A program made the translations under genes and the position numbers. 64,000 bases of DNA from Verrucomicrobiota bacterium (GTDB lineage: Bacteria; Verrucomicrobiota; Verrucomicrobiia; Chthoniobacterales; JAFAMB01), in contig JBEEIB010000146.1 in assembly GCA_041167675.1 (NCBI GenBank), positions 2,935 through 66,934 on the forward strand, in the 5' to 3' direction. The notes below the pieces were generated by a model. It did not search any database. It saw only the letters and a list, made by a program, of their open reading frames with translations, and was not told where the DNA came from. Below are positions 1 to 49,495 of this stretch, in pieces (position 1 is the first letter of the stretch; each line of letters opens with the position of its first letter).

Positions 1-2660
1 GCCGGCGGTCGCGGCTGGTTTGCAGTTCGAGATCCATCCCGAAACCAAACAATTCCTGGACGAACGGCTGGGTGATGCTGCCACTCGTAATCCGGAGGCG
101 CTGCCGCTCTTGCAATTTTGCTTGGAAGCTTTGTACCAAGCTCAGGCGAAACGGGGCGACGGATTGCTCATTCATGTGGATTACGATGCGATCGGCGGAG
201 TGGAAGGCGCCCTTGCCAATCGCGCGGAGGAAACCTTTGGCGGTTTGCAGCCGGTCGAACAGGACGAGTTCGACCGGGTCATGCGAGCGGTGACAACGGC
301 GGACGATAACGAAACATTCACTCGTCGCTGGGCCGATCGAGATGAGCTTGGCCGGGTCCCGGCGACGAAAGCTTTCATGGATGCGTTTTTGGCGCCCGCA
401 GCGCGCTTGTTTGTGGTCGATCGGAATTTGGCGGGTCGCGTCGTAGTGAGTGTTACCCATGAAGCACTGCTCACACGGTGGGAGCGCTTGCATCAATGGT
501 TGCTGACCAATTTGGAAAATTTGCGTACACGGGCCCAAGTAAGCGCCGATGCCCTCCGCTGGCGGGAGAGTGGGCGCAACGAGATTATCTTTATGCCGGC
601 GCATTGCCGCTGGCGAAAGCCCAGGACTTGGCGGAGCGCGACTTTCTCGACGACGCCGAGCGGGAATTTGTTGCCGCTTCGGTGGGAGTCGTTCGATCCG
701 CTTCGGAAAAGAAGCGGCGTGATTTGCAACGAATGATCGCCGGAGTAAGCGTAGTTGCCGTTGTTGCGCTGGCGCTCGCCATCACAAGTTTCGTGCAATA
801 CTCGCGGGCTCAATCGGCCAGGAGAGAGGCGAATCAAGCCGCCCAACGGGCTAAGCTCGCGCGCTCGGAAGCTGAAAAATTGATTAACTTTCTCGTGGGA
901 GACCTCCATGACAAACTGAAGCCGATCGGGAAGCTCGATCTGTTGGCCGAAATCAGTAATCGGGTCCGCGCATATTATCAAAACTTTGCCGACCGAGAAA
1001 GAAGCCCGGAGGCGCTCAAGCAGTGGAGCACCGCATTAATAAATCAGGGTGATGTGTTCACCGATCAAGGCGACCTGGACGCTGCGCTGAAATGTTATCA
1101 AGAGTCACTCTCGATCAGGCAAAATCTGTTTCAGCAAAACTCCCAAAGCACGGAATCGCAACGAAATGTTAGCATGGCCCTCTCTAAAATCGCAGGGAAC
1201 CGGCATGCGCGGGGCAACTTTGCGAATGAACTGACCAATTACGAGCAATCGTTAGCAATCCGCAGAGGAGTCGTAAAAACTAAGCCCGAGAATCAAGATT
1301 TTCGCCATGATCTTTCAACCGCGCTGAGGGACGTAGGAAAAGCGGCCCATAATATGGGCGATGAAGCCAAGGCGCTGCAGAACTTACTTGCGGGAAGCGA
1401 TTACCGTTGACCGATCGATCATCGACGCGGAGAGCGCGCCGGCCGCTTGGCAGAATGACTTGTCCTATGCGCTGCTTCTCGCTGGAGACGTTTTAACGGA
1501 ACTAAACAATTCGTCCGAGGCGCTGCAAGATTATAAGGATTCACTTGCCATTCGCGAGAGGCTAGCGAAGGCGCAACCTGACAACTCAGATCGCCAAAGA
1601 GATTTGGCGGTAAGCTTGGAGAAAGTTGGCTATGCGCTGGTTGATGAAGAAGATGAAACGACGGCGTTGGAGAAACAACGGGCAGCTCTCGCTATCCGAG
1701 AGAGCCTAGTGGGTCGGGATCCCAAAAATGCTGATTGGCAACAGGGATTGGCAGCGAGTTATCAAAATATTGGGAGAATTCTAGCCGACCAAGGTGATCT
1801 CACGGCCGCACTGGCTAGCTATCAGAGTTGTACACGAATTCGAGAAAAATTGGCGGCAGATGATCCGTCGAATGGTCTGACTCGACGCTATCTCGCCATC
1901 GCGGATGAGGAGATTGGAGATATTTTGTTGCTCAAGGGCGACACGGTTGGCGGGCTGGAAAAGCTTCGATTGGCAGTGGCTCGCTTTCGCACGCTGGCAA
2001 CCAAAAACCCGGAGAATCTCCTTCTAAGGGGCGATCTGGGTGGTGCACTAAAGGAACTGGGGGATGCTGAGAGACTCAATAACGAATTTGAGTCTGGCTT
2101 GATCAATCTGAACGAAGCACTCTCCATTTTTGGACCGCTGACCAAGAAGGATCCCAATAACTTGTTTTGGCAATATCTGACCGCACTTACCAAGCGGAAT
2201 CTAGGAGTTCTCACTGCGTCCCAGAAGCGTTGGGCCGAAGCCACCAGACTGGAAGAAGTCGCCGAGGAGACGCTCCTTAACCTTCTCACGGCAAGATCCC
2301 TCCTCGGTTTCCTTTATCCAGGACCTGGCTATCTGTGATATTCGAATCGGCCAAGCTGCGGAAGCGAGCGGGGATGAAGAAAAAGCGATTGGACGATTCA
2401 GGGCAGCGTCCAATCTACTTGAACCCCTGGCGAACAAAAAGTCGCCGCGGCGGGAATGGATCGGCCAGTTTGCTCGCGCTGCCTATCTGTTAGGCGTGAC
2501 TTTACATTCCCCGGCGGAGAGCCAGATCGTCCTGCAGAAGGGTCGCGACGCATTGCTTACACTGGAACAAAAGAATTTCCTCAGTGCGGTCGACAAAACG
2601 ACGCTGACCGATATTCAGAACCCCCTTAATAGAAATAAAGGGCAGGGCGCGCAGAATTAA
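1..2660 (+). pseudogene. STAND-type NTPase C-terminal region, TM helix and TPR-repeat protein. It is 5' partial at the window edge and interrupted by three frameshifts.
   Basis: Frame 2 (2 to about 580) reads LPLLQFCLEALYQ...VSVTHEALLTRWERLHQWL, typical of the helical end of NACHT/nSTAND NTPases. The reading continues in frame 1 from about 580 (DYLYAGALPLAKAQDL, TM helix IAGVSVVAVVALALAI, then TPR-like repeats). It moves to frame 2 at about 1381 and frame 3 at about 2286, with stop TAA at 2658-2660. ORF-track pieces 20..736, 478..1410 and 1361..2338 are fragments of one gene. Confidence 0.7.
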
Positions 2661-2677
2661 ATTCGCGCGCCTTTTTG
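2645..2677. terminator. Bidirectional rho-independent terminator between convergent genes
   Basis: GGCGCGC(A)GAATT-A-AATTCGCGCGCC forms a hairpin. It is followed by TTTTTG on the + strand and preceded by an A-rich run that gives a T-tract on the - strand. Confidence 0.6.
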
Positions 2678-2704
2678 TTAGCACCTACTCTAACCGGGCA
2701 GATA

Positions 2705-2905
2705 TCACTGTTTCGGACTCACATTGCCGGCTGGGTGCGAGCTCGACATCGCTTTCGGCATACCGGCCGAGGACTTCTTCGGTTTGTGCTTTTTCGACTT
2801 ACTCTTCGAACTAGCCGAAGACTTCGGCGAAGGACTCGAATCGGCTGCTTGGATTGCAGCGCTGCAGCTAAAGGCAATAACCAACAGAAGAATCAACTTT
2901 TTCAT
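2705..2905 (-). CDS. Small secreted Ser/Lys/Pro-rich protein (66 aa)
   Basis: An internal ATG at 2905 gives MKKLILLLVIAFSCSAAIQA (signal peptide) followed by DSSPSPKSSASSKSKSKKHKPKKSSAGMPKAMSSSHPAGNVSPKQ. A paralog lies at 3358..3566. Confidence 0.5.
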   Translation of the reverse strand: MKKLILLLVIAFSCSAAIQAADSSPSPKSSASSKSKSKKHKPKKSSAGMPKAMSSSHPAGNVSPKQ

Positions 2906-2961
2906 GAGTAGACTGCAGGGGAGGCTAATCAGCTCTTTAGGGAAGGGCAATCCCTTAGACG

Positions 2962-2997
2962 CAAAAGGCGCGTCGACTTCAATTCACGCGCCTTTTG
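2962..2997 (-). terminator. Hairpin terminator downstream of the small lipoprotein gene
   Basis: CAAAAGGCGCG...CGCGCCTTTTG is a palindromic stem with flanking A and T tracts. Confidence 0.5.
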
Positions 2998-3073
2998 CCG
3001 CGCTCGGAACGATAAGACCGAGCGCTCCATAGGTTATTTCTTAGCCCATTTGAACCGGATTAGCGGTGCAGTA

Positions 3074-3235
3074 TTACTTCCCTACCGGCTCTTTGCCCGT
3101 CACTGGGGGCGGCGCCGGTTTCGTTTCGGAGCAACAGCCCGCGAAACTGAGGCTGATCAAAGCCGAGCAGAGTAACGCGATTATCGCTAAATTACGTGTC
3201 TTTAATCCTTTTTTTCTACTTTCCTGATTCATCAT
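3074..3235 (-). CDS. Small lipoprotein (53 aa), below the ORF-track length cut-off
   Basis: My own translation gives MMNQESRKKGLKTRNLAIIALLCSALISLSFAGCCSETKPAPPPVTGKEPVGK. It has a positively charged N-terminus, a hydrophobic core and the lipobox SFAG|C. Confidence 0.5.
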   Translation of the reverse strand: MMNQESRKKGLKTRNLAIIALLCSALISLSFAGCCSETKPAPPPVTGKEPVGK

Positions 3236-3357
3236 CGTCTTTCGTTTTTCGTTGTTACTTTGTTAGTACCTACCTGGTTGCCATTGGCGAGAGGGGGGAG
3301 ACTCTATAGGTTGGTCAGGGCCTTTTTACTTCGTTCTGATTCTAGCCCGGCATGGCC

Positions 3358-3566
3358 TCAATACTTTGGATTTGGGCTTGTTCTGCCGCCAACTGGAGGA
3401 TGCTGGCTTGCCATCGCTTTGGGCATTCCCTTTTTCGGCTTGTGCTTTTCCATTCTACTCCTTGCAGCGGCCGACATGGCAGCAAATGGCGATGGGCTAG
3501 GATGGCTGCCTGGCTAACAGCGGTAAAGCCGCAGACAGTAACCACTAGAATAAAGATCTCGTTCAT
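3358..3566 (-). pseudogene. Frameshifted paralog of the 2705..2905 small secreted protein
   Basis: The signal peptide MNEIFILVVTVCGFTAVSQA is in one frame. The homologous mature part SHPSPSPFAAMSAAARSRMEKHKPKKGMPKAMASQHPPVGGRTSPNPKY (stop 3358-3360) is in another frame. The junction is near 3498-3512. Confidence 0.45.
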
Positions 3567-3664
3567 GGACGTAGGTTGCTGGTGAGGCTAATAAACTCTC
3601 GGGGGAAACGCAATACCAACTCGTGGAGGGTTCTTCCAGCCAAAAAAAGAGCCGAAAAATGCAA

Positions 3665-3688
3665 GAGCGCCCCCTTTTGGGGACGCTC
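3665..3688 (-). terminator. Rho-independent terminator after the 940-aa gene
   Basis: On the - strand, the hairpin GAGCGTCCCC-AAAA-GGGGGCGCTC is followed by T-rich sequence (TTGCATTTTTCGGCTCTTTTTTT). Confidence 0.55.
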
Positions 3689-3715
3689 CTCATTTACTTC
3701 AGCTTCGGTCACTCT

Positions 3716-6538
3716 TTACTTCGAAGCCACATCGGCTTTCTTCAATAGCAGGGAACGGTGGCGGCGCAGGTCGAGTCCGCTGCGGACAGCCGGATATGGC
3801 TTATCGCCGTGCAGACCTTCCCAGACGATTCGATTAAACTTGTCCGGATTGACATTATCCTCACGTGTAAAATCGAGGTCCTTGGTCTTTTCCGCCCAGT
3901 AAACCGCGTCATGGGTCGGCTTCGGAATCGTCTTATTCTTTGCGAACCGTGGCGGCAATGGCAGTTGAGTGTTGTACAGGTATATCGACGGCACGGCGTC
4001 GAAAGTCCATTGCCGTTGGTTGAGGTCGAAGACTTTGGTCATCGGCTTTTCTGAAGCTGTAAGCACGTCCACATGGTCGACGTTGAGGATATCTTCAATC
4101 GTTCTAAGCATGTTGACGGTGGTGTACTTCTCCGATATCACGGCACCGTGCTTGACATACGGTCCAACGACATAACCGGTCGACCGATGCGAATCGACGT
4201 GGTCTGCACCGTCCTGGGAGTCATCTTCCAGAATGAAGATCAACGTATCGGATTTATAGGGGCTCTTCGCCACTTTTTCGATCAACTTTGCTACTGCATA
4301 ATCATTGTCAGCTTGCTGGATCTCCGGAGTGTTCACGCCGTCAAGCGCTGAACTGAATGACCCCATGTGATCTTCCATCAGGCGGACCATCGAGAGTGCC
4401 GGGAGATTGCCTTTTTTGACGTAATTATCAAATTCACGCTCCCATTCTTTCTCGCGCCAGAAATCTGGGAAGGCGGTATCGAAGCTGCGAAAGTAGAGGT
4501 CGGTGGTGTCGCGCAGAGCAACCCGAGACGGGAACCCGACTTGGATATGATCGTGGTACGGATCCCGATCACGCGGTGTTGCTTGGCCGTTTGGCAAGAA
4601 ATACTCGGTTTGATCGCAATGATAGCCGTAGTTGCGGAACGTCTTACCCGCCCGGGTGACGGCGTCCCAGATATAGCCTTGCTGCACATCATCGTCGCTG
4701 GGACCATCGAGCGCTCCGACGTCGGCAGTACCGGGCAGGATATCCGGATCACTCGGGCTGATCGGATTGATTTTCTGCCGTTGTTGGACAGTGGCAAAAC
4801 CGACATTGATGTCGCGGTTCTGGCCTTCCGAATCATAAGCCACACCTCGACTGGAGTAATTCTGCGGGATTCCAATTGTTGTCAGATTGTTCTCACGTCC
4901 GCCGAAGCTCCAGACGTGGCCGTCACCACTGACGTCGGCCGTGTTATAAAAGTTGTCCAGATCGACAAATTGCTGCGCGATCGCATGGTAGTTTGGGGTA
5001 ATCGCTTGCCCGAAATCCACCAACGTAGGATCGCCATTACCCCGATCCAAGTCACCGAGCACCTGGTCGTACGTCCGGTTTTCCTTAACCAAGTAAATCA
5101 CGTGTTTGATTCGATGCTGCAGCTCCTTAATCAAATTCGCGTCTGCCCCGTCCAGTTTAGCAGTGAACCCATTGTTTTCTGCAACTTGCTTGGTGAGGCC
5201 ATTAAGCTCCTGCTGGCTCGGCACTGGGAAGCTCTGCAGATAGGATTTCTGTAGCTCTTCGACATATTGGTTGGGATCCTTCTGGTTGAAGTAGGTCAAA
5301 CCCGGATTCGGGCCAGTTACCCCTTTGCCGTCGGCAACATAAGCATACTTTCCATCGTTGCTCAGTGTTACGGCGTTCGGTTGGAAGCCGGCCGGAATTA
5401 AGCCAATCACTTCCGGATGAAAAGGGATGCCTTTGATGACCGAAACCGCGTTGGTTCCGCCCAGGGTAACATAGAGGGTGCTGCCGTCCGGTGATAACGC
5501 GGCACTGTTAGGAGCGCTTCCACGGTAGGTCAGGACCTTGTCGAATCTGAGCTCATCCGGCGCACTCGCGATAACGCTCTGGAACAATTCATCGTTACTT
5601 GTAGTGATGATGTCGACCAGATCGCTGTTGTCCTCGGTGACGTAGAGATAGCGCTGTGTCTTGTCCAGGATCGTCTTAAGCGGGTTGCCGGCAACTTCAA
5701 TGCGAGTGACGATTTTTGGGGCCGCAATCGTAGTGAAATCGACAACGACAATCTCGCGATCGCGCGCGCTAGAGACATAGGCGGTATTGTTTCCTTTCAC
5801 TGTAACCCAGAACGGATATTCCCCGCCGGGTTTGCCTGAGTCCGCCGAATTATTCTTACCCGGGCGAAGATCGAGCTCTTTCACCACGCTGCGGCTTTGC
5901 ACGTCGATAAACGAAATCGATTCATTATTGTAATTGGCAACGACTAACGTTTGGCCGTCTTGCGTAAGGTCGATCCCGCCGGCAACGCCCGGCAAATCAC
6001 CGGGAAAGAGCGCGACACCAGAGCTATGACCGAGTTTGATCGGGGTACCCGACTCAGCCCATTGACCGTTTTGAATGCTAAATGTGTGGATGTTGTCGTC
6101 GCCACCGCCTGCGGCGTAGAAGGTCTGCCCAGTCGGATCAAACGTGATTCCGACAAAAGCGTTCGGGACCTGGAGGACCTGTTTCTTGACCGGTTTGCCT
6201 CCGCTGATGTCGAAGACAAAGATATATTCGTTGTTGAACGACTTACCTTTGGTGTCGGTCAGGTTGTTGTGACCGCCGGTCAACACGAGCAAGATTTTTC
6301 CGTCCGGACTCTTGGCTGTGCTGAGAGCGCCTCCCGCGATGAAGTTTGGAAATTCTGGAAGCTCAGGATTTAGAGCTTCATAGGTGGATTGGGGGGCAGC
6401 TGTGGGAGTAATCGTCAATCCCGAAGGTAAGAAAATACCTTGGCTGGCGATCGCCGGCGAGAGGGCCGCCAGCGAAGAGAGAGCAACCGCGCTGGACCAA
6501 GCCAAGCGGAGCAGGGGTTTCTTTTTGGGCATGAACAT
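3716..6538 (-). CDS. Secreted bifunctional-type protein with an N-terminal YncE/YVTN-like beta-propeller and a C-terminal phosphoesterase (phospholipase C / acid phosphatase family) domain
   Basis: A 940-aa intact ORF with signal peptide MFMPKKKPLLRLAWSSAVALSSLAALSPAIAS. Propeller-type repeats are present (SPDGKILLV, TQDGQTLVVANYNNESISFIDV, SPDGSTLYVT, SNDGKYAYVADG). The phosphoesterase signature is IKHVIYLVKENRTYDQVLGDL. A paralog lies at 19170..22049. Confidence 0.9.
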   Translation of the reverse strand: MFMPKKKPLLRLAWSSAVALSSLAALSPAIASQGIFLPSGLTITPTAAPQSTYEALNPELPEFPNFIAGGALSTAKSPDGKILLVLTGGHNNLTDTKGKSFNNEYIFVFDISGGKPVKKQVLQVPNAFVGITFDPTGQTFYAAGGGDDNIHTFSIQNGQWAESGTPIKLGHSSGVALFPGDLPGVAGGIDLTQDGQTLVVANYNNESISFIDVQSRSVVKELDLRPGKNNSADSGKPGGEYPFWVTVKGNNTAYVSSARDREIVVVDFTTIAAPKIVTRIEVAGNPLKTILDKTQRYLYVTEDNSDLVDIITTSNDELFQSVIASAPDELRFDKVLTYRGSAPNSAALSPDGSTLYVTLGGTNAVSVIKGIPFHPEVIGLIPAGFQPNAVTLSNDGKYAYVADGKGVTGPNPGLTYFNQKDPNQYVEELQKSYLQSFPVPSQQELNGLTKQVAENNGFTAKLDGADANLIKELQHRIKHVIYLVKENRTYDQVLGDLDRGNGDPTLVDFGQAITPNYHAIAQQFVDLDNFYNTADVSGDGHVWSFGGRENNLTTIGIPQNYSSRGVAYDSEGQNRDINVGFATVQQRQKINPISPSDPDILPGTADVGALDGPSDDDVQQGYIWDAVTRAGKTFRNYGYHCDQTEYFLPNGQATPRDRDPYHDHIQVGFPSRVALRDTTDLYFRSFDTAFPDFWREKEWEREFDNYVKKGNLPALSMVRLMEDHMGSFSSALDGVNTPEIQQADNDYAVAKLIEKVAKSPYKSDTLIFILEDDSQDGADHVDSHRSTGYVVGPYVKHGAVISEKYTTVNMLRTIEDILNVDHVDVLTASEKPMTKVFDLNQRQWTFDAVPSIYLYNTQLPLPPRFAKNKTIPKPTHDAVYWAEKTKDLDFTREDNVNPDKFNRIVWEGLHGDKPYPAVRSGLDLRRHRSLLLKKADVASK

Positions 6539-6946
6539 ATGAATTCTTCCATGATGGCGAAACGCGTGCCTTTCGAGCGGTTAACTCCAACGCCAAACTT
6601 AGAGCGATTGAGTAGCTCAAAAGGCAGAGCGGCCGCCTTCCTAACCAAATCCATGGGGTGGAAGAATTCCGGCTGGTTATTGTAAATTTTCAGTAACATT
6701 CGAACGAGACTATGGCAGGATTGTCATTTTTTGGTTTGGACGGAACCCAAACAACCACAGAATGTTTATTTATAGCAACACAGAATGAAGAAGTTGTGAG
6801 TATCTTTCAGCGCAAGAAAATGTACTTCTGAGCGGCTAGGTTGAGCTACGGCGGTTAAAGCCGGATGCGCCGCTGGAAGGTGTGCTGGTTGCGGCGCCCG
6901 GGCACAATCCAGAATTTTCCGAGGAATCCACCCGACTGTTATTGAG

Positions 6947-12342: not shown

Positions 12343-12379
12343 AATAGTCGTTTCGAGAAATAATGGTTCATATTTGGAG

Positions 12380-14262: not shown

Positions 14263-15569
14263 CTACAATTGATCGTTCTGCGCGCGTTCCTGCAGGGTTT
14301 TATACAATTCCTGGCCAGTTTTATCGGCTGCATTGTTTTGATAAATCACTTTCTGTAGCGCTTCCGTGATATCATTTACCACTAGCCCCCAGTTGATCGG
14401 AGCAAGCGCTACCCCGGTTGAGATTTGCTGAGTAAACGCTTGTTGCCACCAGTCGCTTTTGAAATCCGGTAGATCGGCGACGTCTTGGCGCGGAGGGTTA
14501 ATTCCTTCGAGCTTGGCGTCCATGGCAACAAAGTCCTTGCTACAAAGAAGTTTGATTAGCTCCCAGCCATCCGATTTATCCTTAGTCGCCGCATTGATCA
14601 TGATCGGCTTAACCTCCAGATAGGTGGCCTGGGTGCCGCCGGGTGGGAGCGGGAGAGCAACAACCCCGGTATTTTCTTCTAGAATTTTGCGCGCGGTATC
14701 GCCGGTCTTGCGATAGCTGTAGATCCAAGGGCCCATCGGAACCATCGCGCTTTTGCCAGCAACGTAATCGGCGTCAGTAGCCTGATAGTCGTTACCACGC
14801 GTATTCTGATTGGCGGCGGACGGATTAGCTTTGAAGAACGCGTCGTGGTAGAGAGCTAAGACCTGAGCTAGTTTTTCCGGAGTAGTATTAATCGACCATT
14901 TCTGGGTGGCCTCATCATACTTAAACGGATTTTGGCCCCGTTTACCTGGAAGAAAAACGAAATGAATTCCTGGAATGTCCGAACGCTGCCTGCCTTGGTG
15001 GTTAGCCCGAGTCCGGCAACCCCCGTTTCTTTCGTCGAGATCATAGCGGCGTCATCCAGCATTTCTTCCCAGGTCTTGGGAGGCTGCAAATTATACTTCT
15101 GCAGAATGTCCTTTCGGTAGAGTAAGACCCGAACATTGGTGTTGTAGGGCACTCCATAAAGCTTCCCATTAATGGTGAGTGCTTTGATCGTGCTGGGGAT
15201 AAACTTATCCTTGTCCGGCCACTGGCTAAATAAGTCATCGATTGGAGCAATCAGGCCGGCCTTTTGGTAGGCAATCATGCCTTCAAGCACGCCTTCGATC
15301 ACATCCGGTTTGCCGCGGCGACCCTGCACGATGAACTTCTGCTGAGCGTCCTGGTAAATGGGAGGCCCGTAGTTACCCGGTACAGTGACACCTTTGGGCA
15401 GATCTTTGGGAAAATGTTCTTTGATCCAAGCCAAAAGACCAGGTGTTTGCGGCCCTTCTTGCGACATCGGGACAAACCAAAGGTCAATTTCTTTGCTGAA
15501 AACCAGGCCGGTCGACAAAAAAAGGCTGGCAGCTACCAATAGGATGCGATGGGGGGGACGGATAAACAT
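14263..15569 (-). pseudogene. Sugar ABC transporter substrate-binding protein with a single frameshift
   Basis: ORFs 14868..15569 (signal peptide and N-lobe) and 14263..14745 (C-lobe) are parts of one gene. The frame of the C-terminal ORF reads back through GQNPFKYDEATQKWSINTTPEKLAQVLALYHDAFFKANP... up to a C4/G4 run at 14936-14939, where the frames switch. Confidence 0.85.
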
Positions 15570-16635: not shown

Positions 16636-16689
16636 ACTTTTCGCCGGCCAAACCAACGATCGCCACATCAAAATGCGGAAATCAGTGTG

Positions 16690-16884
16690 AAGGTACCCAG
16701 AGGCATATTGGAAGCCGCTCGCATCGACGGAGCCGATGTGTGGAAAGAGCTTTGGTATTTGTTACGGCCAATGACAATGCCGGGGCTGGTCTCAACCGCT
16801 CTGCTCCTCATCATCTTTTCTTGGAACGAGGCGTTCTGGAGTATCAATCTCTCGAACGCCAATGCGCAGCCGTTGACCATGTGA
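16690..16884 (+). pseudogene. Remnant (about 65 aa) of a MalG-like ABC permease
   Basis: VPRGILEAARIDGADVWKELWYLLRPMTMPGLVSTALLLIIFSWNEAFW is the EAA loop and following helix of a sugar permease. No N-terminal 200 aa precede it, and it abuts the AraC stop codon. Confidence 0.7.
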
Positions 16885-22289: not shown

Positions 22290-22790
22290 CTCGGCGTAAT
22301 TTCATCCATCATTTTGCGGTTGATAAAACTGTGGATCGAATCGAGATCTGAGACCTCAATCTCTCTCTCCCGGAAGGAGTGAGCATCCGCCCAGCTGGGC
22401 CGCGCGGTCTGGCCCACTCGGGAGGTACTCGCGCGTTTGCTGAGAGATGAATCGGGCTTGATCGCCGAAAAAACGAAGCCCTTTCTCCGTGACTGCCTCG
22501 ACCACGTCCTAGCTATTGTGGATCTGCTTGAGACCTACCGCGATATCACAAGCAGTTTCATGGATCTGTACGTCTCGAGTCTGAGCATGCGGACCAACGA
22601 CATCATGCGCGTACTCACCATCATTTCTTCGATTTTCATTCCACTCACTTTTATCGTTGGATTGTACGGGATGAACTTTACCAACATGCCCGAACTGCAC
22701 TGGCGCTTCGGTTATCCGAGTGTCATTCTCATCATGTTGGCCGTAGCCAGCGGCATGATCCTGTTCTTCAAGCGAAAGAACTGGTTGTGA
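22290..22790 (+). pseudogene. corA: CorA magnesium/cobalt transporter remnant (C-terminal third plus degraded upstream part)
   Basis: ORF 22437..22790 ends with the CorA TM hairpin VLTIISSIFIPLTFIVGLYGMNFTNMPEL...FFKRKNWL. In-frame upstream sequence (LGRAVWPTREVLARLL) stops at a TGA at 22380. Further upstream, only frame-broken traces remain (AVDKTVDRIE). The N-terminal 180 aa or so are absent. Confidence 0.75.
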
Positions 22791-28108: not shown

Positions 28109-28960
28109 CTAATTCGTGGCTCCAGCCGTCAATCCCCCACGCCAATATTTCCCAAGGAGGATAAACGCCGCGATGAGCGGCAAAACGCTGATGAGCGAGC
28201 CCAGCGCAATCAGGTGATAGGATGGTTTTCCGCCGCCGGCGGCGTTGATGACGCTGTTCCAAATGTTCAAGCCTAGCGTTAACGGGTATAGATCGTCGTT
28301 GCTGAGGACGATCAAAGGCAGAAAGAAGTTGTTCCAGGCACCGACAAAACTGAGCAACGCCACTGTGACCAAGCCGGACTGCATGAGGGGCATTCCGAGA
28401 TACCAAAAGATCCGCAGCTCACCGGCGCCATCCAGGCGCGCGGCTTCGATCAGATCGTTGGGAAATGAGGCGTTCCAGAAAACCCGCATCAGATAGAGAC
28501 CAAAGGGATTCACCAGGCTCGGCAAGATGACCCCCCAGATGCTGTTCACCAAGCCGAGCCGATAAAGCATGAGAAATAAGGGCAGAACCAGGGCGGTCGA
28601 AGGCACCATGATGGTACCGAGAATGAAGTTAAAAAGAAAGTGTTTACCGGGGAAGTCGTATTTGGCAAAGGCGTAGCCGCCCAACGCGCAAATCAATGTG
28701 CTTCCCACTGAAATCGATCCGGCGTAAAGGGGCGAATTGCCAAACCAACGGACAAAAATCCCGTCTCGAAAAGCGAACAGGTCTACGATGTTTTCAAAGA
28801 AGTGAGGCGGATTGGCGAACCAGAACCCGAAAGTCGTGAAAATCTGACTACTATCCTTGGTCACGGCCGCCAGGATCCAAGTCGCCGGCAGGATGCAATA
28901 GAGAAGGAAGATCGCGAGGACGGCATGACGAAGTGCTCCGGGGAGGGAACGTGCGCCAAT
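28109..28960 (-). pseudogene. MalG-like sugar ABC permease lacking a start codon (5' truncated)
   Basis: The ORF-track version starts at the GTG at 28864, inside TM1. The frame stays open upstream (IGARSLPGALRHAVLAIFLLYCILPATWILAA) to a TGA, with no ATG/GTG/TTG. The EAA loop is FPNDLIEAARLDGAGELRIFWYLGMP. Confidence 0.75.
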
Positions 28961-28987
28961 ATGGGCGGTAGGGACCGGCTCCTGCCG

Positions 28988-29434
28988 GTCCCATTGAAGC
29001 GAGCCGACCTCTCACCTGGGCCGATGTGTGAAGGGGATTGGAGTGCGAAAAGCGGTTATCTCGCCGCACTCGAATTAATCCGCCATCACCGAGGTAATTT
29101 CACCGCGCTGGTGACCGCCAACGATCATAGGGCGCTGGGCGCATTGAGTGCTTTTCACAAGAACGGAATCGCAGTCCCCGATGAAATATCGGTCATTGGA
29201 TACGACGGCATGCCGGAGTCTGAGTTTTATCAGCCCTCGCTGACCACCATTTACCAGGATTTCGCGGCTCTCGGAGAGATGAGTGTTGAGTTTCTTCTAA
29301 GAATGATCAACCAGCCTGGTACTTCGCCTCAACGTTTCATTTTGAAGCCGGTCCTGGTCCCCAGAAGGAGCACCGCGCCGCAGAACCACAAAAGAAAATA
29401 TAAACCACGAATGGACGCTAATGGACGCGAATAA
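28988..29434 (+). pseudogene. C-terminal half of a LacI-family regulator (no HTH and no N-terminal sugar-binding subdomain)
   Basis: GDWSAKSGYLAALELIRHHRGNFTALVTANDHRALGALSAFHKNGIAVPDEISVIGYDGMPESEFYQPSLTTIYQDFAALGEMSVEFLL is typical LacI/GalR C-terminal sequence. The upstream in-frame residues are non-homologous and overlap the permease remnant on the other strand. Confidence 0.7.
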
Positions 29435-29690
29435 ACGAACTTAATTCGTGTTCATTCGTGTCGATTCGCGGTTGAAAAAACCTCGACCAAACAGCGAAAA
29501 GCAAAAACTAACCACGAGTAGACGCTAATGGACGCGAATCAACGGATCTAATGCGTGTTCATTCGCGTCGATTCGCGGTTGAAAAAGCCTCGACCAAACA
29601 GCGAAAAGCAAAAACTAACCACGAATAGACACTAATGGACGCGAATCAACGGATCTAATGCGTGTTCATTCGTGTCGATTCGCGGTTGGA
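29403..29690. repeat. Tandem repeat with a 107-bp unit in about 2.7 copies
   Basis: Units start at 29403, 29510 and 29617 (AACCACGARTRGACRCTAATGGACGCGAAT...GTGTTCATTCGYGTCGATTCGCGGTTGAAAAA.CCTCGACCAAACAGCGAAAAGCAAAAACT). Each unit contains the hairpin GACGCGAAT...ATTCGCGTC. Confidence 0.9.
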
Positions 29691-29700
29691 AAACAACGAA

Positions 29701-31665
29701 ATGACGTCACGAACGCTACTCTCTACACCAAGCCTTGGTGTTTGTTATTATCCGGAACATTTGCTCACGGATTATTGGGCTACCGATTTTGATTCCATGC
29801 GTGAAATCGGAATACGCATCGTTCGCGTAGGTGAGTTCGCGTGGAGTAGGCTTGAGCCGGAGCCAAGCGAATACCGATTCTCCTGGTTGGAGCAACTTCT
29901 GGATTTGGCCGAATCGAAGAGTTTGTCCATTGTCCTTGGTACCCCAACGTCCGCGCGCCGAAGTGGCTGGTGGATCGGATGCCTGACATGGTTGCGGTCG
30001 ATGCATGGACAACGGAAAGGATTCGGTTCGCGGCGCCATTACTGTTTTTCGCATCTCGGTTACCGAAAGGAATGTGTGCGCATTGTAACTAAATTGGCCC
30101 AAGCCTTCGGCGAACACCCGGCGGTTATTGCCTGGCAGACGGACAACGAATTTGGTTGCCACGATACCGTACTGAGCTATTCCGACGCCGATCGCTCCGC
30201 CTTTCGAGCCTGGTTGCGAAACCGCTATCTATCAATTGAACAGTTAAACCAGGCTTGGGGAAATGTTTTCTGGAGCATGGAGTACAGGAGCTTCGACGAG
30301 ATCGAGCTTCCGAATCTTACGGTTACAGATCCAAATCCAGCTCATGAGCTCGATTATCGCCGCTTCTCCTCGGACGAGGTCGACAGCTTCAATCGGTTAC
30401 AAGTGGACCTTATTCGTCAGTATTCGCCGGGGCGAGCGGTTCTTCACAATTTCATGGCGACCTTTCTGGACTTCGACCATTTCAAAGTTTCCAAATCGCG
30501 GATGCGGCGAGTTGGGATTCTTATCCGTTGGGGGCGCTCACGCTGCTGAAGGCGCCCGAAGCGTACAAAGCCCGCCACCTTCGACTGGGTGATCCCGATC
30601 TCAGTGCCTTTCATCATGACCTTTATCGAGCCTGCGGCAGAGGTCGATTCTGGATTATGGAGCAGCAACCCGGGCCAGTGAACTGGGCGGCCTACAACCC
30701 TGCTCCGCACCCTGGCGCGGTTCGCCTTTGGACCTTCGAGGCGATCGCCCACGGGGCCGAAGTCGTCAGTTATTTCTGTTGGCGACAAGCGCCTTTTGCT
30801 CAGGAACAGATGCACTCCGGGTTGAATCTGCCCGATCGACAACCTGACGTCGGTGCATTCGAAGTTCGTCAAACTGCGAATGAACTTTCCCAGCTCGATC
30901 TAGCGTCGTTAGTGCCGGCAGAGACCGCACTGGTGTACGACTACGAAGCCGCATGGACGCTCGCTATTCAGCCGCAAAGGGAGGACTTTGATTACTTTGC
31001 GGTAGCCATCAGCTTCTATCGAGCGCTCAGACGATTCGGTCTGAATATCGATATTCTTCCACCGGGCGCTCCATTAGATGGTTACAAATTGGTAATGATT
31101 CCTCCGCTCCCAATCGTGTCTGCGAGCTTGATGCAATCCCTCACGCGATTTAATGGTCAGGTTCTCATCGGTCCGCGTACTGGATCCAAAACGCCAAATT
31201 TTCAAATCCCGGCCGAACTCCCGCCCGGTCCACTCCAAGAGGTGATGCCGATAAAAATCGTTCGGGTGGAGTCTTTACCGGATTTTGTTTCCTTCCCCTT
31301 GGTGTGGGAATCGGCCCAGTACCAATGCAATTTATGGCTCGAACACGTGCGAACTGATCTGGTGCCATTCATCCGGCTCGCAGATGGACACGGAATCGGC
31401 TATCGGAACGGCAACATCACCTATCTGGCGACGTTGCCGGAGCAATTTTTGCTGGGCGAAATTGTTGAAGATCTTCTAAACGCCGAAGGGTTCAAATTGA
31501 GCGAAATACCACCAGGCATTCGCGTCCGCACCCGCGGGAAGCATCGGTTTTTCTTTAACTATAATCCCGAACCGGTGAAGTTGAATCTGCCGCCTGAAAT
31601 TCGTAATGGGTGTCGCGGAGATGCCGGCCGCTGGTGTGACAATTGTGGAAGTGGCTCCGCTTTAA
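29701..31665 (+). pseudogene. GH42 beta-galactosidase with at least four frame disruptions
   Basis: GVCYYPEH, WQTDNEFGCH, ASWDSYPLG and FWIMEQQPGPVNW match Thermus-type GH42. The expected PPKWLVDRMPDMVAVDA is out of frame between about 29955 and 30010. There is a frame switch at the AAA run 30493-30495. The C-terminus FVMGVAEMPAAGVTIVEVAPL* is only reached after a shift at the AAA run 31597-31599. Confidence 0.85.
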
Positions 31666-31685
31666 GGTGAGCGATGATTCGAAGA

Positions 31686-34116: not shown

Positions 34117-34442
34117 TTCCGTTCCGACGAAAAGCGCGGAGTGGAGCTTTTCCGGCTCGCGAAGGAAAAGGGGTTGGAAGGAATCATCGCGAAACGTAAG
34201 AGGAGCACGTATCAGCCTGGCCGGCGCTCACTGGATGGCTAAAGATTAAGGCACGATCGCAGCAAGAGTTCGTTGTCGGCTCCACCGAAGGCAAAGGAAG
34301 CCGAAAACATTTAGGCGCCCTATTATTGGGTGCGTACCGAAACGGAAAGCTTCGCTATTTCGGCCACTCCGGCGCAGGCTTCAGTGAAAAGGGAATAAGC
34401 GAAACGATTGAGCGACTAAAGCCGCCTTTCATCGCCGACTGA
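34117..34442 (+). pseudogene. Remnant of an ATP-dependent DNA ligase (LigD-type OB-fold region), frameshifted and truncated
   Basis: GVELFRLAKEKGLEGIIAKRKRSTYQPGRRSLD is followed, after a 1-nt shift at about 34234, by WLKIKARSQQEFVVGSTEGKGSRKHLGALLLGAYRNGKLRYFGHSGAGFSEKG. The adenylation domain is absent. Confidence 0.7.
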
Positions 34443-42459: not shown

Positions 42460-42475
42460 CGCGCTAAAGTTTGGA

Positions 42476-42627: not shown

Positions 42628-42710
42628 TTCGTGCCTCGATAACAAAACTGACTCTATCGGCCGCGCCAAGGATGAGACGCAGAAAGCGTGAATTTAGATA
42701 ACTCCAAAAG

Positions 42711-43982: not shown

Positions 43983-45317
43983 ATGAGCATCAGAAGCATA
44001 GTGTCAACCTTGGAGCAGTTGGGAGCGTCTCCTCGTAAGTCGTTCGGGCAGAATTTCTTGCATGACAAAAACATGGCCAAATGGATCGTGGGTCAACTCG
44101 CTATTCAGGTCGGCGACCATATCGTGGAAATTGGTCCTGGCTTGGGGGCTTTGACGGCAAATTTTAGCCAATCAGGGGTGTCGGCAACTCTGCTGGAAAA
44201 AGACAAGCTTTTTGCGGAATTCGTTGAGAACACCTTCTCCGGCGACCGGATTCGGGTGGTAAAAGGAGATGCGCTTGAATGCGATGTCCGCGACTTTTTC
44301 CCTCTCGGAACGGTGAAAGCGGTCGGGAATCTGCCGTACTACGCCTCTACGCCGATCCTATTTCATTTTACTGCCGATCCTTCGCCTTTCGAGCGTCTGG
44401 TTTTTACGCTCCAACGAGAGGTGGCTGACCGCCTGGTCGCCACTCCCGAGACTAAAGAGTACGGAGCAATCAGCGTTTTGTTGCAAGCCAGGTGGAATAT
44501 CACCCGGCTTCGAGTGCTTGCTCCTGCACTTTTTTTCCCGCGCCCCCAAGTCGATTCGGCGGTTATCCGGCTCCTGCGCAAACCCGCACATGAAATGCCG
44601 GAAATAGATTGGCCGCGCTTCAGCCGATTAGTAAAAACCGGGTTCGGAGAACGGAGAAAACAGCTGCGAAAGAATCTAACTAAGCTCTTTCCGATCGATG
44701 CATTAGAGAACGCATTCACCGTCACCGGTTTGAGTTCGTCTTGCCGAGCAGAGGAGCTCTCGGGAAGGAAATGGTTTGAACTGGCGCATGAACTATTCCC
44801 CTCATTTGGGGAAGGATCTCATCCCACAGAAAAGCTGGTCTTAGTTGATGATTCTGACCGACCGATGGGAGCTGCAGATCGTCAAGCGATTCACAATCAA
44901 GGGTTACGGCATCGAGCTGTGCACTTGTTCATTGTCAATCGGGATCACGAGCTATTCTTGCAAAAACGTTCCTGGCGCAAAGATCAACATGCTCGTATTT
45001 GGGATTCGAGTGCGGCCGGCCACGTTGACGCCGGAGAGTCTTATGATGACTGCGCCAGTCGAGAATTATCCGAAGAGCTAGGCATATCTGCTGATCTCGA
45101 GCGAATTGGAGCCATTGCCGCATCTGACAAGACCGGCCAAGAATTCATCTCGATTTATCGAGGAAGCCATGACGGACCGATTCGGTACAACGCTCTGGAA
45201 ATTGAAACCGGTGGTTTTTTTAGACTGGGAACGATCGATGTCTGGATAGAGAAACGGCCGGAGGATTTTGCGCCAGGATTCCTCGAGTGTTATCGCACGG
45301 TTCGGGCAAGCTTGTAG
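43983..45317 (+). CDS. rsmA: Fusion of the 16S rRNA dimethyladenosine transferase RsmA/KsgA with a C-terminal Nudix (Idi-like) hydrolase domain
   Basis: The N-terminal 270 aa or so read KSFGQNFLHD...VEIGPGLGALT...GNLPYYASTPILF...RAEELS. After a short linker comes VLVDDSDRPMG...LRHRAVHLFIVN with the intact Nudix box GHVDAGESYDDCASRELSEELGI. It is a single uninterrupted 444-aa ORF. Confidence 0.85.
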   Translation: MSIRSIVSTLEQLGASPRKSFGQNFLHDKNMAKWIVGQLAIQVGDHIVEIGPGLGALTANFSQSGVSATLLEKDKLFAEFVENTFSGDRIRVVKGDALECDVRDFFPLGTVKAVGNLPYYASTPILFHFTADPSPFERLVFTLQREVADRLVATPETKEYGAISVLLQARWNITRLRVLAPALFFPRPQVDSAVIRLLRKPAHEMPEIDWPRFSRLVKTGFGERRKQLRKNLTKLFPIDALENAFTVTGLSSSCRAEELSGRKWFELAHELFPSFGEGSHPTEKLVLVDDSDRPMGAADRQAIHNQGLRHRAVHLFIVNRDHELFLQKRSWRKDQHARIWDSSAAGHVDAGESYDDCASRELSEELGISADLERIGAIAASDKTGQEFISIYRGSHDGPIRYNALEIETGGFFRLGTIDVWIEKRPEDFAPGFLECYRTVRASL

Positions 45318-45432: not shown

Positions 45433-47859
45433 CTAGCACGGCCACTTCCAGTCTACGATCTCCGGTTTATCGGTACCGTATTCGTAGGCGTAATTGCGGC
45501 AGGCGATCTGTTCGTTTCTGAAATTATCCTTGGCATGCGCCCCGGCCACCTTAAGGCTCGGCACCCGATCAATCGCTTCGATTGCGATACTGAAGCGGTC
45601 GATTCCGTTGCGAATCGCCAGCTCGAAAGGTGTGTCGATGCTGCCCTTTTCCTGATAACCCCGCACGTGCAGATTGTCGTGATTATGGCGGCGGTAAGTG
45701 AGGCGATGAATCATCCAAGGATAGGCGTGGAAATTAAAGATGACTGGCTTATCGAGGGTGAACAAGCTATCAAAGTCGCGATCAGATAAACCGTGGGGAT
45801 GGTCGGTCTCCGGCTGCAGCCGGAAGAGATCCACTACGTTGATGAATCGGATTTTCAAAGCTGAAAACTCGTTCCGCAACAAAGCAGTCGCGGCCAGACC
45901 TTCCTGAGTCGGAATATCTCCGGCGGTTGCGATCACGACATCGGGTTCTGCGCCTTGGTCATTGCTAGCCCAGTCCCACAGTCCAATCCCTTTGGTGCAG
46001 TGCATGATGGCCGCCTCCATGTTCAGATACTGGAGATGGAGCTGTTTGTCGCAAACGATCACATTGATGTAATTCTTACTTCGCAGGCAATGATCAGCGA
46101 CAGATAACAAGGTATTGGCGTCAGGTGGCAGGTAGATGCGGGTTACGGCCGGACTTTTGTTGGCGACGATATCGAGAAAGCCGGGATCTTGATGAGTAAA
46201 GCCGTTATGGTCCTGCCGCCAGACGGTGGAGGTGATCAGCAGATTTAGCGATGGAATCGGCGCGCGCCACGAGAGCCCGTTACATTTCTCCAGCCACTTG
46301 GCGTGTTGGTTAACCATCGAGTCAATCACATGGACGAATGATTCGTAAGTGGCGAAGAAGCCGTGGCGCCCGCTGAGAAGGTAACCTTCCAACCAACCCT
46401 CGAGAGTATGTTCGCTGAGCATTTCCATGACCCGTCCATCCGGTCCCAGCTCTCCGCCATCGAGGTCTTCCGGAAGATATTCTTCCAGCCAAGTCTTCTT
46501 AGCTGCTTCATAAATCGCAGCCAGCTTGTTTGAGGTGGTCTCGTCAGGACCAAAAACTCGAAACTTGTCCGCATTTTCCTTCATCACATCGCGGAGGAAA
46601 ACTCCCAAAATAGATGTGTTGGATACTTCTATTTGAGCGGGCTTCGAAATTTCGACCCGATGATCACGGAAATCCGGCAGACGCAGACTAAGTCTAAAGA
46701 CTCCTCCGTTGGCATGTGGGTTGGAGCCCATGCGGCGATTGCCGTGCGGACTTAGCTCTCTCAATTGGGGTATCAGCTGACCGTTCTCGTCAAAAAGCTC
46801 TTCCGGTCGATAGCTCCGCATCCATTGCTCCAGCAACTGCAAGTGTTTGGGGTTCTTTGCTATATCCTCGATCGGAATCTGGTGGGCGCGCCAGAAGCCT
46901 TCCAATTTGTGTCCATCGACTTCCGCGGGTGCCGTCCAGCCTTTTGGCGAGCGTAGAATAACTACCGGCCAGCGAGAAAAGGTAGCTACTCCCGTGGTCC
47001 GAGTCTTCCGCTGAATGTCTCGGATTTCTTCAACGCATTCGTCCAATGTCGCTGCCATCGCTTGGTGCATGCTGTCGTGCTCCGAGCCTTCGACAAAGTA
47101 CGGTTTGTAACCGTAGCCAACAAAGAGTTGCTCAAGGTCCTCGTGCTTGATTCGCGCCAGGATCGTCGGGTTGTTTATCTTGTAGCCGTTCAGGTGAAGA
47201 ATTGGTAGGACCGCTCCATCCCTAATCGGATTGAGAAACTTGTTGGAATGCCAGGAAGTAGCCAAGGGTCCAGTTTCAGATTCACCGTCCCCCACCACGC
47301 AAGCGGTGATCAGATCCGGATTGTCAAACACCGTTCCGAAAGCATGGGAGAGACTATAACCTAACTCGCCTCCTTCGTGAATAGAGCCGGGTGTTTCTGG
47401 GGTACAATGGCTGCCGATGCCTCCGGGGAACGAAAACTGTCGGAAGAACTTTTTCATCCCTTCTGCGTCTTCGCTCTTATCTGGGTAGATTTCAGAATAG
47501 CTTCCGTCGAGATATACCGGCGCGAGGACCCCGGGCGCGCCATGTCCGGGACCCGACACATACATCATGTTCAAATCGTATTTCCTGATCACGCGATTCA
47601 GATGTGTCCAGATAAAGGATTGCCCCGGACTCGATCCCCAATGGCCCAATAAGCGGCGCTTAATATGCTCGATCTGGAGCGGTTCTCTGAGCAACGGGTT
47701 ACTTCGCAGATAAAGCATTCCAAGGATAAGATAACAACAAGCCCGCCAATACGCGTGCATGTTGTGGAGTTCTTCTGGGCTTAGAGGAGTTCCTTGAGCG
47801 GTGGCTCTCGCAGGACCGAATGCGCTAATGGTGTCTAAGTTGGGTGTGGCGGTAACCAT
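45433..47859 (-). CDS. xfp: Phosphoketolase (xylulose-5-P/fructose-6-P phosphoketolase)
   Basis: An 808-aa intact [54 protein letters not shown] and [12 protein letters not shown] are diagnostic XFP motifs. Confidence 0.9.
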
Positions 47860-47956
47860 AGTTTCGCTTTCACAGGAATTTGATATTCGGTAGCGAGGAA
47901 AAACTCCGTAGCCAGGTTCGCATTGGAGCGCTAATTCGCTTGTGCAAATATGTCGG

Positions 47957-48634
47957 TTAGGACGAGATCATCTCTCCGTGACCGCCGATTGCGATCGAAG
48001 CCCTTGGTTCGGCTTTGCGGTGGTCCTGCGTGGAGTCCGTCCAATCGGACTTCAGCAGGCTGTAGACTTCCAAATCGACAAATCGATCGCCGAGCCATTC
48101 CGCCTCGCGAAGAATTCCCTCGTGGCGGAACTGCAACCGAATACAAACGGCGCGGCTGGCCTGATTTTCCGGCGCGATGCGGACCTCAATCCGATTGAGA
48201 TTCAAGTACTTGAAGCCCAATTGAATCAAGGCGCGAACAGCGCCAGTCATATAACCATTTCCGGTGTGGGTTTGTGCTAACCAATAGCCGACCGTACTGC
48301 TGCGGTGGAAGTGATCAATGGCATTAAACGCAATAACGCCGATGATTTCCTTCCGAAGCGTGATAGTACAGTGAACCGCCCGCAGCGACGCCTGTTCTTC
48401 AATTGCGTGTCGGATGAACAAAGAGGAATCGTTCGGTGTGCGAGTAGCGTCTACCCATGGCAACCATCGTACGAGATGCGCGCGGTTGCGGTCGGTCACC
48501 GCGAAGAGCTCTTCCGCGTCTTGTTCTTGGAGGGTGCGAAGCAGGAGATCCGGGAACTCAGTCGGATACGGCCATAAACCGGAAGGCTCATTTGATGCAG
48601 GCGTCACAGTTGGATGAGAGGAGCCAAGAAACAT
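47957..48634 (-). CDS. GNAT N-acetyltransferase (RimJ/RimL-like)
   Basis: [14 protein letters not shown]...[27 protein letters not shown]...[33 protein letters not shown] is present. Confidence 0.8.
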
Positions 48635-48755
48635 GGCTCCTTTTTAGCGGAAGCAAAGAATTTCCGTAGCGAAATCTGCGTCGATTGGGCTGAAGCGAAG
48701 CGGCGCTAGAATTGGCGGAGCCCATGACAGTTGACTCATCTGAGATCCGAGCGAT

Positions 48756-49495
48756 TTGAATCGCGATCCCTTTTGGTGCCTCTATGCTTTGGGTGATCTC
48801 GACCCGCACGAATATCCGCTCTGTGATTGGCGGGTAAAAGGCGGACCGCAGGAGGCGGTAGTGCTGTTGTATCACGGGTTTAGCGTTCCAGTGCTTTTCG
48901 CCGTTGGTCAGCCGGCCGATGTGGAAGCGCTTCTACGCGCGGGACCGATACCGGCTAAGGTCTATCGCCATGTCCGGCCGGATGTCACTTCAATTGTTCG
49001 CGCTCATTACGAGCTGCTGGAGACTCACCCGATGGCACGAATGATTTTTCGGGGCAAGATTAATAGTAAATCGAACAATGTGCACCGGCTGACTGAACTC
49101 GACGTCCGAGGTTGATCAAACTGTACCCTGAACGGCGGGCCGGTATAGACGGCGGCGTGTTTTTTGACCCGATCATGGTTCGTCGTGGATGTTATTACGG
49201 GGTTTGAGAGAGCGGCCATTTAGTTGCGGCCGCCGGTACTCATTTGGTCAATGAGTTGCAGGGTGTCGCTGGTGTCGGCAACGTTTTTTGCCATCCTTCT
49301 CACCGTGGCAAGGGAATGGGACGCGCAGTCTTTGCCGCGGTAGTGAAGGAACTTTCCGACCGCGGCATCACGACTATCGGATTGAATGTTGGCCCCGACA
49401 ACGAAGCCGCTCGTGGTCTCTATCAAAGCTTAGGGTTCGTGGATTACTGCATCTACGAAGAAGGTCCGGCCACCAGGCTAATGATTAGAGGGTGA
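48756..49495 (+). pseudogene. GNAT acetyltransferase (FR47-like) disrupted by one frameshift and one in-frame TGA
   Basis: The 48756..49115 frame ends at ..LTELDVRG*. A shift at the TT at 49112-49113 gives LIKLYPERRAGIDGGVFFDPIMVRRGCYYGV, followed by a TGA at 49205-49207. In the same frame it continues ESGHLVAAAGTHLVNELQGVAGVGNVFCHPSHRGKGMG... to 49495. Confidence 0.75.

Follow-up and report, generated by a model that had tools for sequence, protein, structure and literature searches.

Genes of the window and the broken loci among them

The sequence analysed here, called the window, is a stretch of 64,000 nucleotides from contig JBEEIB010000146.1 of an uncultured Verrucomicrobiota bacterium (Chthoniobacterales; GenBank assembly GCA_041167675.1). 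A first-pass annotation, made from the letters alone, had pointed to a number of genes in positions 1 to 49,495 that appear to be interrupted or cut short. G+C content is 53-54% across the whole 64 kb. Pfam scans of the main open reading frames (ORFs) gave 39 intact protein genes and 10 loci that are broken or reduced to remnants, and a single tRNA gene, tRNA-Ser, is found at 33904-33991; the window contains no rRNA gene. Within these 64 kb, 67.5% of the sequence is intact coding DNA, 16.3% is pseudogene remnants and 16.2% is other sequence. The remnants make up 21% of positions 1-49495, and the right-hand 14 kb holds intact genes only, mostly housekeeping ones. The ten broken loci are the following.

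1..2660, plus strand: nSTAND1 NTPase-transmembrane-TPR pseudogene (STAND-TPR), with Pfam matches in three successive frames; its first ~1.5 kb lies to the left of the window and is seen in contig L001
6947..8436, minus strand: sensor histidine kinase with a 1-bp deletion (A) after 7885, polymorphic
14263..15569, minus strand: sugar-binding protein of an ATP-binding cassette (ABC) transporter, with a 1-bp deletion (T) after 14937, polymorphic
16636..16881, plus strand: internal remnant of an ABC permease, BPD_transp_1 profile positions 78-129 of 184
22383..22790, plus strand: CorA remnant, C-terminal 135 residues (226-360 of 360), CorA profile positions 162-292 of 292
28112..28990, minus strand: ABC permease without N-terminus and start codon
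28994..29434, plus strand: LacI-family repressor remnant, C-terminal ~157 residues, Peripla_BP_3 from profile position 51
29662..31670, plus strand: GH42 beta-galactosidase pseudogene with four indels
34200..34439, plus strand: remnant of a LigD-type ATP-dependent DNA ligase, ~40 residues, DNA_ligase_A_C profile positions 2-42 of 94 (E = 3.4e-8)
48723-49495, plus strand: GNAT acetyltransferase pseudogene with start ATG at 48723, TGA at 49205-49207, and a T lost at 48754 and at 49104

At least 20 soil metagenome runs, contributed by many studies, contain near-identical DNA. Since 38 contigs (JGI, ENA, Logan) that are 98.6-100% identical to the window come from many such studies, the source organism is a widespread soil bacterium with a tight population. 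The closest reference genomes are metagenome-assembled genomes (MAGs) of uncultured Chthoniobacterales/Verrucomicrobiae: the GH42 gene is 80% identical to that of L002, the STAND-TPR and cytochrome P450 genes are 79% and 84% identical to those of MFD00964.bin.1.196, a MAG with a 5.04 Mb contig, and the MFS transporter is 88% identical to that of another Chthoniobacterales MAG. The independent material consisted of MEGAHIT/SPAdes-type contigs from ENA and JGI, together with Logan contigs, and was compared at the level of assembled contigs. In what follows X1, X2 and so on are metagenome runs (Logan contigs), and L001 and so on are individual reference or metagenome contigs. Lesions were mapped through protein-to-DNA and DNA alignments against intact orthologues or alleles.

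Frameshifts and a nonsense codon in five genes

Alignment to intact orthologues or alleles bore out 10 of the 11 frame breaks that the first-pass annotation had listed, the nonsense codon and all five gene remnants. As expected of unitary pseudogenes, the loci are homologous to full-length genes in relatives, and they show frame disruption, a stop or truncation when set against an intact copy. The lesions are common to independent metagenome assemblies, which marks them as real rather than as sequencing artefacts.

The STAND-TPR gene carries three frameshifts in the DNA alignment, a 1-bp deletion at ~582, a 4-bp tandem duplication of ACTT at ~1382-1388 and a 1-bp insertion at ~2285. Sister MAGs (L102, L100 and L115) encode the orthologue as a single ORF of 1363-1417 aa, the L102 protein being 1382 aa long and 79% identical, and these intact orthologues align to four consecutive frame segments of the window. 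The N-terminal ORF retains a complete NTPase domain, and the region shows no indel difference among strains. In the kinase and the binding protein one base separates the broken from the intact form: kinase alleles with the extra A encode a 496-aa HAMP/HisKA/HATPase protein, and binding-protein alleles with the T encode a protein of 435 aa.

The GH42 gene has lost 1 bp at ~29955, 2 bp at ~30004, 1 bp at ~30499 and 5 bp at ~31596-31598. The first two indels do not interrupt the ORF and take the conserved PPKWLVDxMPDM motif into the wrong frame; the ORF closes at the third, and the 5-nt deletion shifts the last ~20 codons. The gene is in frame in the relatives L003-L005, L120 and L002 (in L002 to the contig end), over the parts that their contigs cover. 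In the GNAT gene the TGA at 49205-49207 falls within the Acetyltransf_1/FR47 domain of a 257-aa read-through, so that the Pfam domain spans the stop. Loss of a T at 48754 uncouples the ATG at 48723, which accounts for the start codon that had been reported missing. The frameshift placed earlier at 49112-49113 is real, a lost T, and its position is 49104.

The remaining frame break, in a small secreted paralog, could not be confirmed: self-BLAST, repeat finding and tblastn yielded only a 35-nt repeat (17064-17098 against 17222-17256) and a match that is not significant (E = 0.13) and is interrupted by a stop, beside an intact small secreted gene at 17116-17577 on the minus strand. A second candidate pair for this paralog, 2724-3032 and 3206-3514, was set aside as it looks like repeated low-complexity DNA. 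The protein encoded by the intact gene at 17116-17577 is small, has a signal-peptide-like segment and carries a Tyr/Arg/Gly-rich tail of an unusual kind (…RPYYGYPYRYHGYYHYRGGRYRYRYYRYGHWHYY); it matches no Pfam family, and every sampled strain conserves it.

Gene remnants and the 2.3 kb deletion

The first-pass annotation had also described corA, LigD, LacI and two permease genes as surviving only in fragments, and profile matches or intact relatives confirmed this for all five. Relative L002 has the full permease gene in an operon with a second permease and a binding protein. A single deletion of ~2.3 kb, with its junction at 28982|28994, truncated both LacI, which lost half, and the permease, which lost its start. 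It also took out the entire binding-protein gene, and the second permease of the operon is likewise gone. The junction is spanned by contigs of X1-X4. What is left of LacI is the ligand-binding half without the DNA-binding domain, aligning to positions 4754-5190 of L002 within a 367-aa LacI gene. The other permease remnant, at 16636..16881, is 43% identical to the permease at 28112-29011.

A full CorA of 360 aa is found in a sister species (L120). We noticed that a 40-nt repeat brackets the CorA remnant, with direct copies at 22174-22213 and 23175-23214 and an inverted copy at 22801-22833, and that unitigs of several runs branch at 22213-22265, at the repeat; it is possibly involved in the truncation or rearrangement of corA. 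The LigD remnant adjoins tRNA-Ser and has a 1-bp deletion polymorphism at 34275 in L128 and L131.

The lesions recur in independent assemblies

No verified lesion is confined to the window: each is seen in one other assembly or more, and most in several, from different studies and assemblers. L001, an ENA contig assembled with MEGAHIT, is 99.69% identical to the window over 8.4 kb, is indel-free in the STAND region and, in the kinase, has the additional A. Logan contigs of four soil runs were aligned to the window. Among them, one of 16.2 kb from X1 matches positions 723-16000 (continuing to 16927), with 1 mismatch and 0 gaps. All four GH42 lesions are covered, with 0 gaps, by a 2047-nt contig of X2, and the GNAT nonsense codon is present in 10/10 contigs of that region. 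Because the same lesions stand in independent soil-metagenome assemblies, assembly error is ruled out in practice, and the lesions are real. The first-pass proposal of gene decay rather than assembly error is thus upheld, the intact copies in sister species pointing the same way. The checks that the annotation had named as able to overturn it favoured it wherever they could be made, and no sister genome was found with identical lesions.

A worry about sequencing error at short base runs had been raised for some of the lesions and proved largely moot. Most lesions have a context other than a base run (CAGAGC to CAGGC, CCTCC to CCCC, GTTC to GTC, the ACTT duplication, and deletions of 2 and 5 bp). 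The sole length change in a run of at least three bases is that at 48754 (T4 to T3), where 6/10 independent contigs have the shorter allele.

Three further differences were considered as lesions and rejected. The window differs from X1/X2/X5 by 2 bp at 18973, which might have truncated a 2880-nt ORF; the difference is harmless, since the ATG at 19170, with its ribosome-binding site and signal peptide, is downstream of it. In some strains the GH3 gene call is shorter, with no sequence difference behind it. A shorter XFP call in L097 coincides with three single-nucleotide polymorphisms (SNPs) near the start, none of them a stop codon.

Clustering of the lesions and the long ORFs

That the lesions cluster in particular genes was sustained, and beyond chance: when 11 events were placed at random on the 41.9 kb of coding DNA, five genes or fewer were hit in 0.1% of trials, and the five longest ORFs were missed in 1.7%. 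These five are:

3716-6538, minus strand: 2823 nt, intact, 940-aa beta-propeller/phosphoesterase
19170-22049, plus strand: 2880 nt, intact, 959-aa phosphoesterase paralogue, 54.5% identical to the 940-aa protein
25403-27682, minus strand: 2280 nt, intact, 759-aa protein with TIR domain and TPR, conserved in sister species
36030-38594, plus strand: 2565 nt
45433-47859, minus strand: 2427 nt

Their lengths are as first reported, and all are uninterrupted in the window. The picture of untouched long ORFs does not extend to other strains, in which 2/5 are frameshifted: the 940-aa phosphoesterase has a 2-bp deletion at 4711 in X2, and its 959-aa paralogue has one at 20594 in L135. The two paralogues are large, secreted-looking proteins encoded in opposite orientation, 12.6 kb apart. 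The TIR-TPR protein has a defence- or signalling-like architecture, as does the STAND NTPase.

Lesion ages and alleles in the population

Dating of the lesions against relatives, which the first-pass annotation had suggested, revealed nested age classes: lesions shared by all strains, lesions that segregate and lesions private to other strains. Wherever a sampled strain covers the site, it carries the three frameshifts in STAND-TPR, the TGA of GNAT and the 2.3 kb deletion. The loss of A in the kinase, the loss of T in the binding protein, the two T deletions in GNAT and at least three of the four GH42 indels segregate. At 7885 the intact kinase allele (+A) was seen in L001, L083, L084, L134, X2 and X5, the broken one in the window, X1/L082, L086 and X4. 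The binding protein has its intact form (+T at 14937) in L083, L085 and X5; elsewhere it has been hit independently. X4 has a 2-bp deletion at 15375, and a 70.7 kb JGI contig has lost 2.7 kb (13820-16546), and with it the binding protein, AraC and a piece of a permease.

Among the GNAT contigs, the T at 48754 is retained in 4/10 and that at 49104 in 2/10, and 2/10 have an additional G deletion at 49433. For GH42, X26 shows the intact state at 29955 and 30004; X27 shows it at 30004 and 30499 but has three other 1-bp deletions. Extra GH42 indels are found in X3, X4, L124 and X27. The cytochrome P450 gene (32142..33470, plus strand) is intact in the window and carries independent lesions in two other strains, a 1-bp deletion at 32804 in L124 and a 4-bp deletion at 33300 in L128; an exact-protein look-up of the P450 gave no match. 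The lesions thus differ in age, and other strains have been hit independently.

Selection and the indel spectrum

Intact genes are under purifying selection. Across the population contigs they carry 174 synonymous and 100 non-synonymous differences, a ratio of non-synonymous to synonymous polymorphism (pN/pS) of 0.18; shifted-frame readings of these genes give 1.4-1.6. GH42 and GNAT together, with 3 synonymous and 15 non-synonymous differences (Fisher P = 2e-4 against intact genes), look neutral. The comparison of broken with intact genes went as a decay reading expects for GH42 and GNAT; STAND-TPR (6 synonymous, 4 non-synonymous) and the permease remnant at 28112..28990 (9 and 7) appear, on small counts, richer in synonymous change than this reading expects. 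We also noticed that between-strain nucleotide diversity at 27700-28990 is several-fold above the window average, with 16 SNPs, synonymous-rich, in 879 nt of the permease remnant, which may reflect imported or older alleles.

Between strains, 41 distinct indel differences were counted, 28 of them intergenic, 9 in 9.8 kb of pseudogene and 4, three of these frameshifting, in 37.8 kb of intact genes. Indels thus avoid intact genes: with the three frameshifting ones counted there, the densities are 0.92 per kb of pseudogene against 0.08 per kb of intact gene (P = 8e-5 for the coding contrast). Of the small lesions that could be polarised by outgroup or population, 9 are deletions and 2 are insertions, and the kb-scale deletions come in addition.

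Rearrangements, repeats and other features

Gene order in the sister genome runs GH42 - lyase - CorA - ... - TIR-TPR - P450, and in the window CorA remnant - ... - TIR-TPR - permease remnant - LacI remnant - GH42 pseudogene - P450. Rearrangement breakpoints therefore coincide with truncated genes. At position 33500, L125-L127, L133 and a loose end in X25 join a sigma-70/RDD/peptidase-S9 block instead of P450. X2 gave no contigs at 96% identity or above over ~19.7-27 kb. Synteny with the sister species ends at the MFS gene, which left no outgroup for polarising the LigD remnant or the breakpoint at 33500.

Short multi-copy repeats lie at many of the rearrangement and breakpoint places. Four elements resembling miniature inverted-repeat transposable elements or repetitive extragenic palindromes (MITE/REP-like), 125-166 nt overall with inverted arms of 31-36 nt, are located at 16898-17046, 27848-27972, 42475-42628 and 55595-55760; two of them have the common motif AGGTAGGGCG. 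Many metagenome unitigs end at these elements or close by, which makes multiple genomic copies probable. At 16897, L083 and L141 have 13 extra bases.

A 107-nt unit is repeated three times in tandem at 29390-29710, between the LacI remnant and the GH42 pseudogene, and forms in run X3 skip 106 or 236 nt of it, which points to copy-number variation. Just after the GH42 pseudogene, at 31685-31741 on the minus strand, there is a match to the Rfam Acido-Lenti-1 RNA motif (RF01687; 42.1 bits, gathering score 37); the motif is part of a repeat that has another match at 10811-10863 and is in tandem in sister MAG L121 (1-714). A 67-nt two-hairpin element is found downstream of genes at 14157-14223 and 56872-56939, the copies being 89-93% identical.

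The region 3235-3650, between the STAND pseudogene and the phosphoesterase, is conserved with L100 and L102 (~50-70% by tblastx, both strands) and has no Pfam match; it could be a small gene or RNA. At 43983-45317, on the plus strand, a KsgA-type rRNA adenine dimethylase is fused to a NUDIX domain in one ORF of 444 aa that is present in all strains.

Explanation of the lesions

We put a probability of roughly 0.88 on ordinary pseudogenisation and erosion of dispensable accessory genes, with deletion bias, in a population that holds many loss-of-function alleles. An accessory gene set would no longer be kept by selection in this population, the released set comprising three sugar ABC-uptake systems, the GH42 galactosidase and LacI repressor, a two-component kinase, the STAND-TPR NTPase, GNAT, CorA and LigD. 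Each gene would have taken a first disabling hit, be it a small indel, a nonsense codon, a deletion or a rearrangement breakpoint. More small indels, mostly deletions, would then have accrued at about the general rate of coding pseudogenes, and larger deletions, several of which adjoin short repeats, would have trimmed the gene to a remnant. Judged from their sequence, the broken genes are predicted to be non-functional, and the driver would be relaxed selection or drift with deletion bias, not selection for a smaller genome.

Some observations weigh against erosion of this kind. The binding-protein lesion of the window is common to run X1 only, and X1, nearly identical to the window, may share its sample or come from a neighbouring one. 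STAND-TPR and the permease remnant have more synonymous differences than neutral decay predicts, their small counts notwithstanding. In a soil metatranscriptome, X25, contigs fall on the permease remnant and the 5' end of GH42, and some broken loci may still be transcribed, though DNA carry-over may also account for these contigs; they fit young, still-transcribed pseudogenes. The sister reference MAGs are, judged from their names, probably long-read assemblies; such an origin could give false breaks there, not the intact ORFs that were seen.

Consensus errors of the window assembly, such as long-read indel errors in genes that the organism itself has unbroken, are hardly credible as the source of the frame breaks. 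Some lesions do lie in or beside short runs (C4 at 14936-14939 in the window, T3 against T4 at 48754), and the window differs from one JGI contig by several 1-bp indels in intergenic DNA. Yet each verified lesion has its counterpart in another assembly, the set includes indels of +4, -2 and -5, a nonsense codon and kb-scale deletions, and random errors would neither cluster in five genes (P = 0.001) nor spare the intact ones. Reversible phase variation at the polymorphic 1-bp indels is equally far-fetched: both states of 7885, 14937, 48754 and 49104 occur in nature, but only 48754 (T4/T3) is an indel in a simple-sequence tract, the other contexts being those given above, and the same genes carry irreversible lesions in other strains. 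It is also improbable, if less so, that some of the split genes still work through separately translated fragments, programmed frameshifting or TGA read-through. The candidates would be the STAND N-terminal ORF with its complete NTPase domain, the two-piece kinase and GNAT, and the synonymous-rich STAND segments and permease remnant and the metatranscriptome contigs over some pseudogenes are in keeping with this. Against it stand the loss of the conserved GH42 core motif, the coexistence of alleles with different lesion combinations, the lack of a slippery or repeat motif at the frameshift sites, the continued gain of indels by the same genes, and remnants that have neither start codons nor essential domains (the LacI DNA-binding domain, the CorA N-terminal half).

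Adaptive loss, in which knock-out of uptake, hydrolase and sensor genes is favoured in the present niche (streamlining or 'less is more'), is possible but doubtful. The same loci have been hit repeatedly and independently, the binding-protein operon in three ways, P450 twice and GH42 stepwise, and broken kinase and binding-protein alleles occur in samples of different studies. Streamlining selection has moreover been proposed for a related lineage, Ca. Udaeobacter copiosus, a cosmopolitan and abundant soil verrucomicrobium with a GC content of 54% (bioRxiv 10.1101/053942). Repeated hits are, however, equally expected under simple loss of constraint, intact and broken alleles stand side by side in the population, and the clade is not obviously small-genomed, given the 5.04 Mb contig of the sister MAG. 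The niche-specific streamlining proposed in the first-pass annotation is not supported, because, in these 64 kb, the low coding density (67.5% intact), the pseudogene debris left in place (16%) and the many MITE/REP-like repeats and breakpoints are the opposite of a streamlined genome, with its dense coding and few pseudogenes or repeats. The functions affected are, as it had said, mainly carbohydrate uptake or use and sensing; genes outside these, namely the STAND NTPase, GNAT, CorA and LigD, are hit as well, as are P450 and the phosphoesterases in other strains.

Relation to known systems and significance

Erosion of accessory genes as proposed here resembles the classical picture of bacterial pseudogene erosion under deletion bias, which Mira, Ochman and Moran in 2001 and Kuo and Ochman in 2010 are said to have drawn. 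In both, a first hit is followed by small indels, mostly deletions, and then by trimming, lesions cluster in dead genes, and pseudogenes are mostly strain-specific or young. The window differs in that it represents metagenome-derived strains of an uncultured, free-living soil bacterium, in which intermediate GH42 alleles coexist. Mycobacterium leprae, Shigella and Sodalis are recently host-restricted bacteria in reductive evolution, and the window shares with them a locally high pseudogene load (10 broken loci against 39 intact genes), repeats, breakpoints at truncated genes and the loss of carbohydrate-use and sensing genes. Unlike them, this organism comes from bulk soil metagenomes, and nothing points to host association. 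The 64 kb show no expansion of insertion sequence (IS) elements, just the short MITE/REP-like repeats, and the right-hand 14 kb is clean.

With Ca. Udaeobacter copiosus the window has in common an order-level neighbourhood, a closely similar GC content (53-54% against 54%) and the loss of catabolic and uptake functions; our search of the literature on Udaeobacter pseudogenes found nothing relevant. Streamlining of the kind proposed for Ca. Udaeobacter copiosus and marine SAR11 gives dense, nearly pseudogene-free genomes, in contrast to the modest coding share, debris and many repeats seen here. We offer tentatively, at well under even odds, the picture of a cosmopolitan and abundant free-living soil verrucomicrobium, possibly Udaeobacter-like, in messy, drift-like erosion rather than streamlining; it is suggested by the many loss-of-function alleles in a ~99% identical population, by repeated independent loss, and by the retention of debris and repeat-associated rearrangements.

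For annotation, the ten loci are to be marked as pseudogenes or remnants, neither 'repaired' nor blamed on the assembler, and lineages of this kind should not be labelled streamlined without a check of coding density and pseudogene load. The phenomenon itself is well known, and the value of the locus lies in a clean allele series at the population level. Intact, once-hit and multiply-hit alleles coexist in public metagenomes, so that gene loss can be followed with unusual resolution in a widespread soil bacterium that is uncultured. These alleles make the order of events legible, and they open the cause, be it drift or relaxed selection or else selected loss, to test. If the pattern were to hold genome-wide, the question of streamlining versus drift in soil bacteria would become directly testable with public metagenomes.

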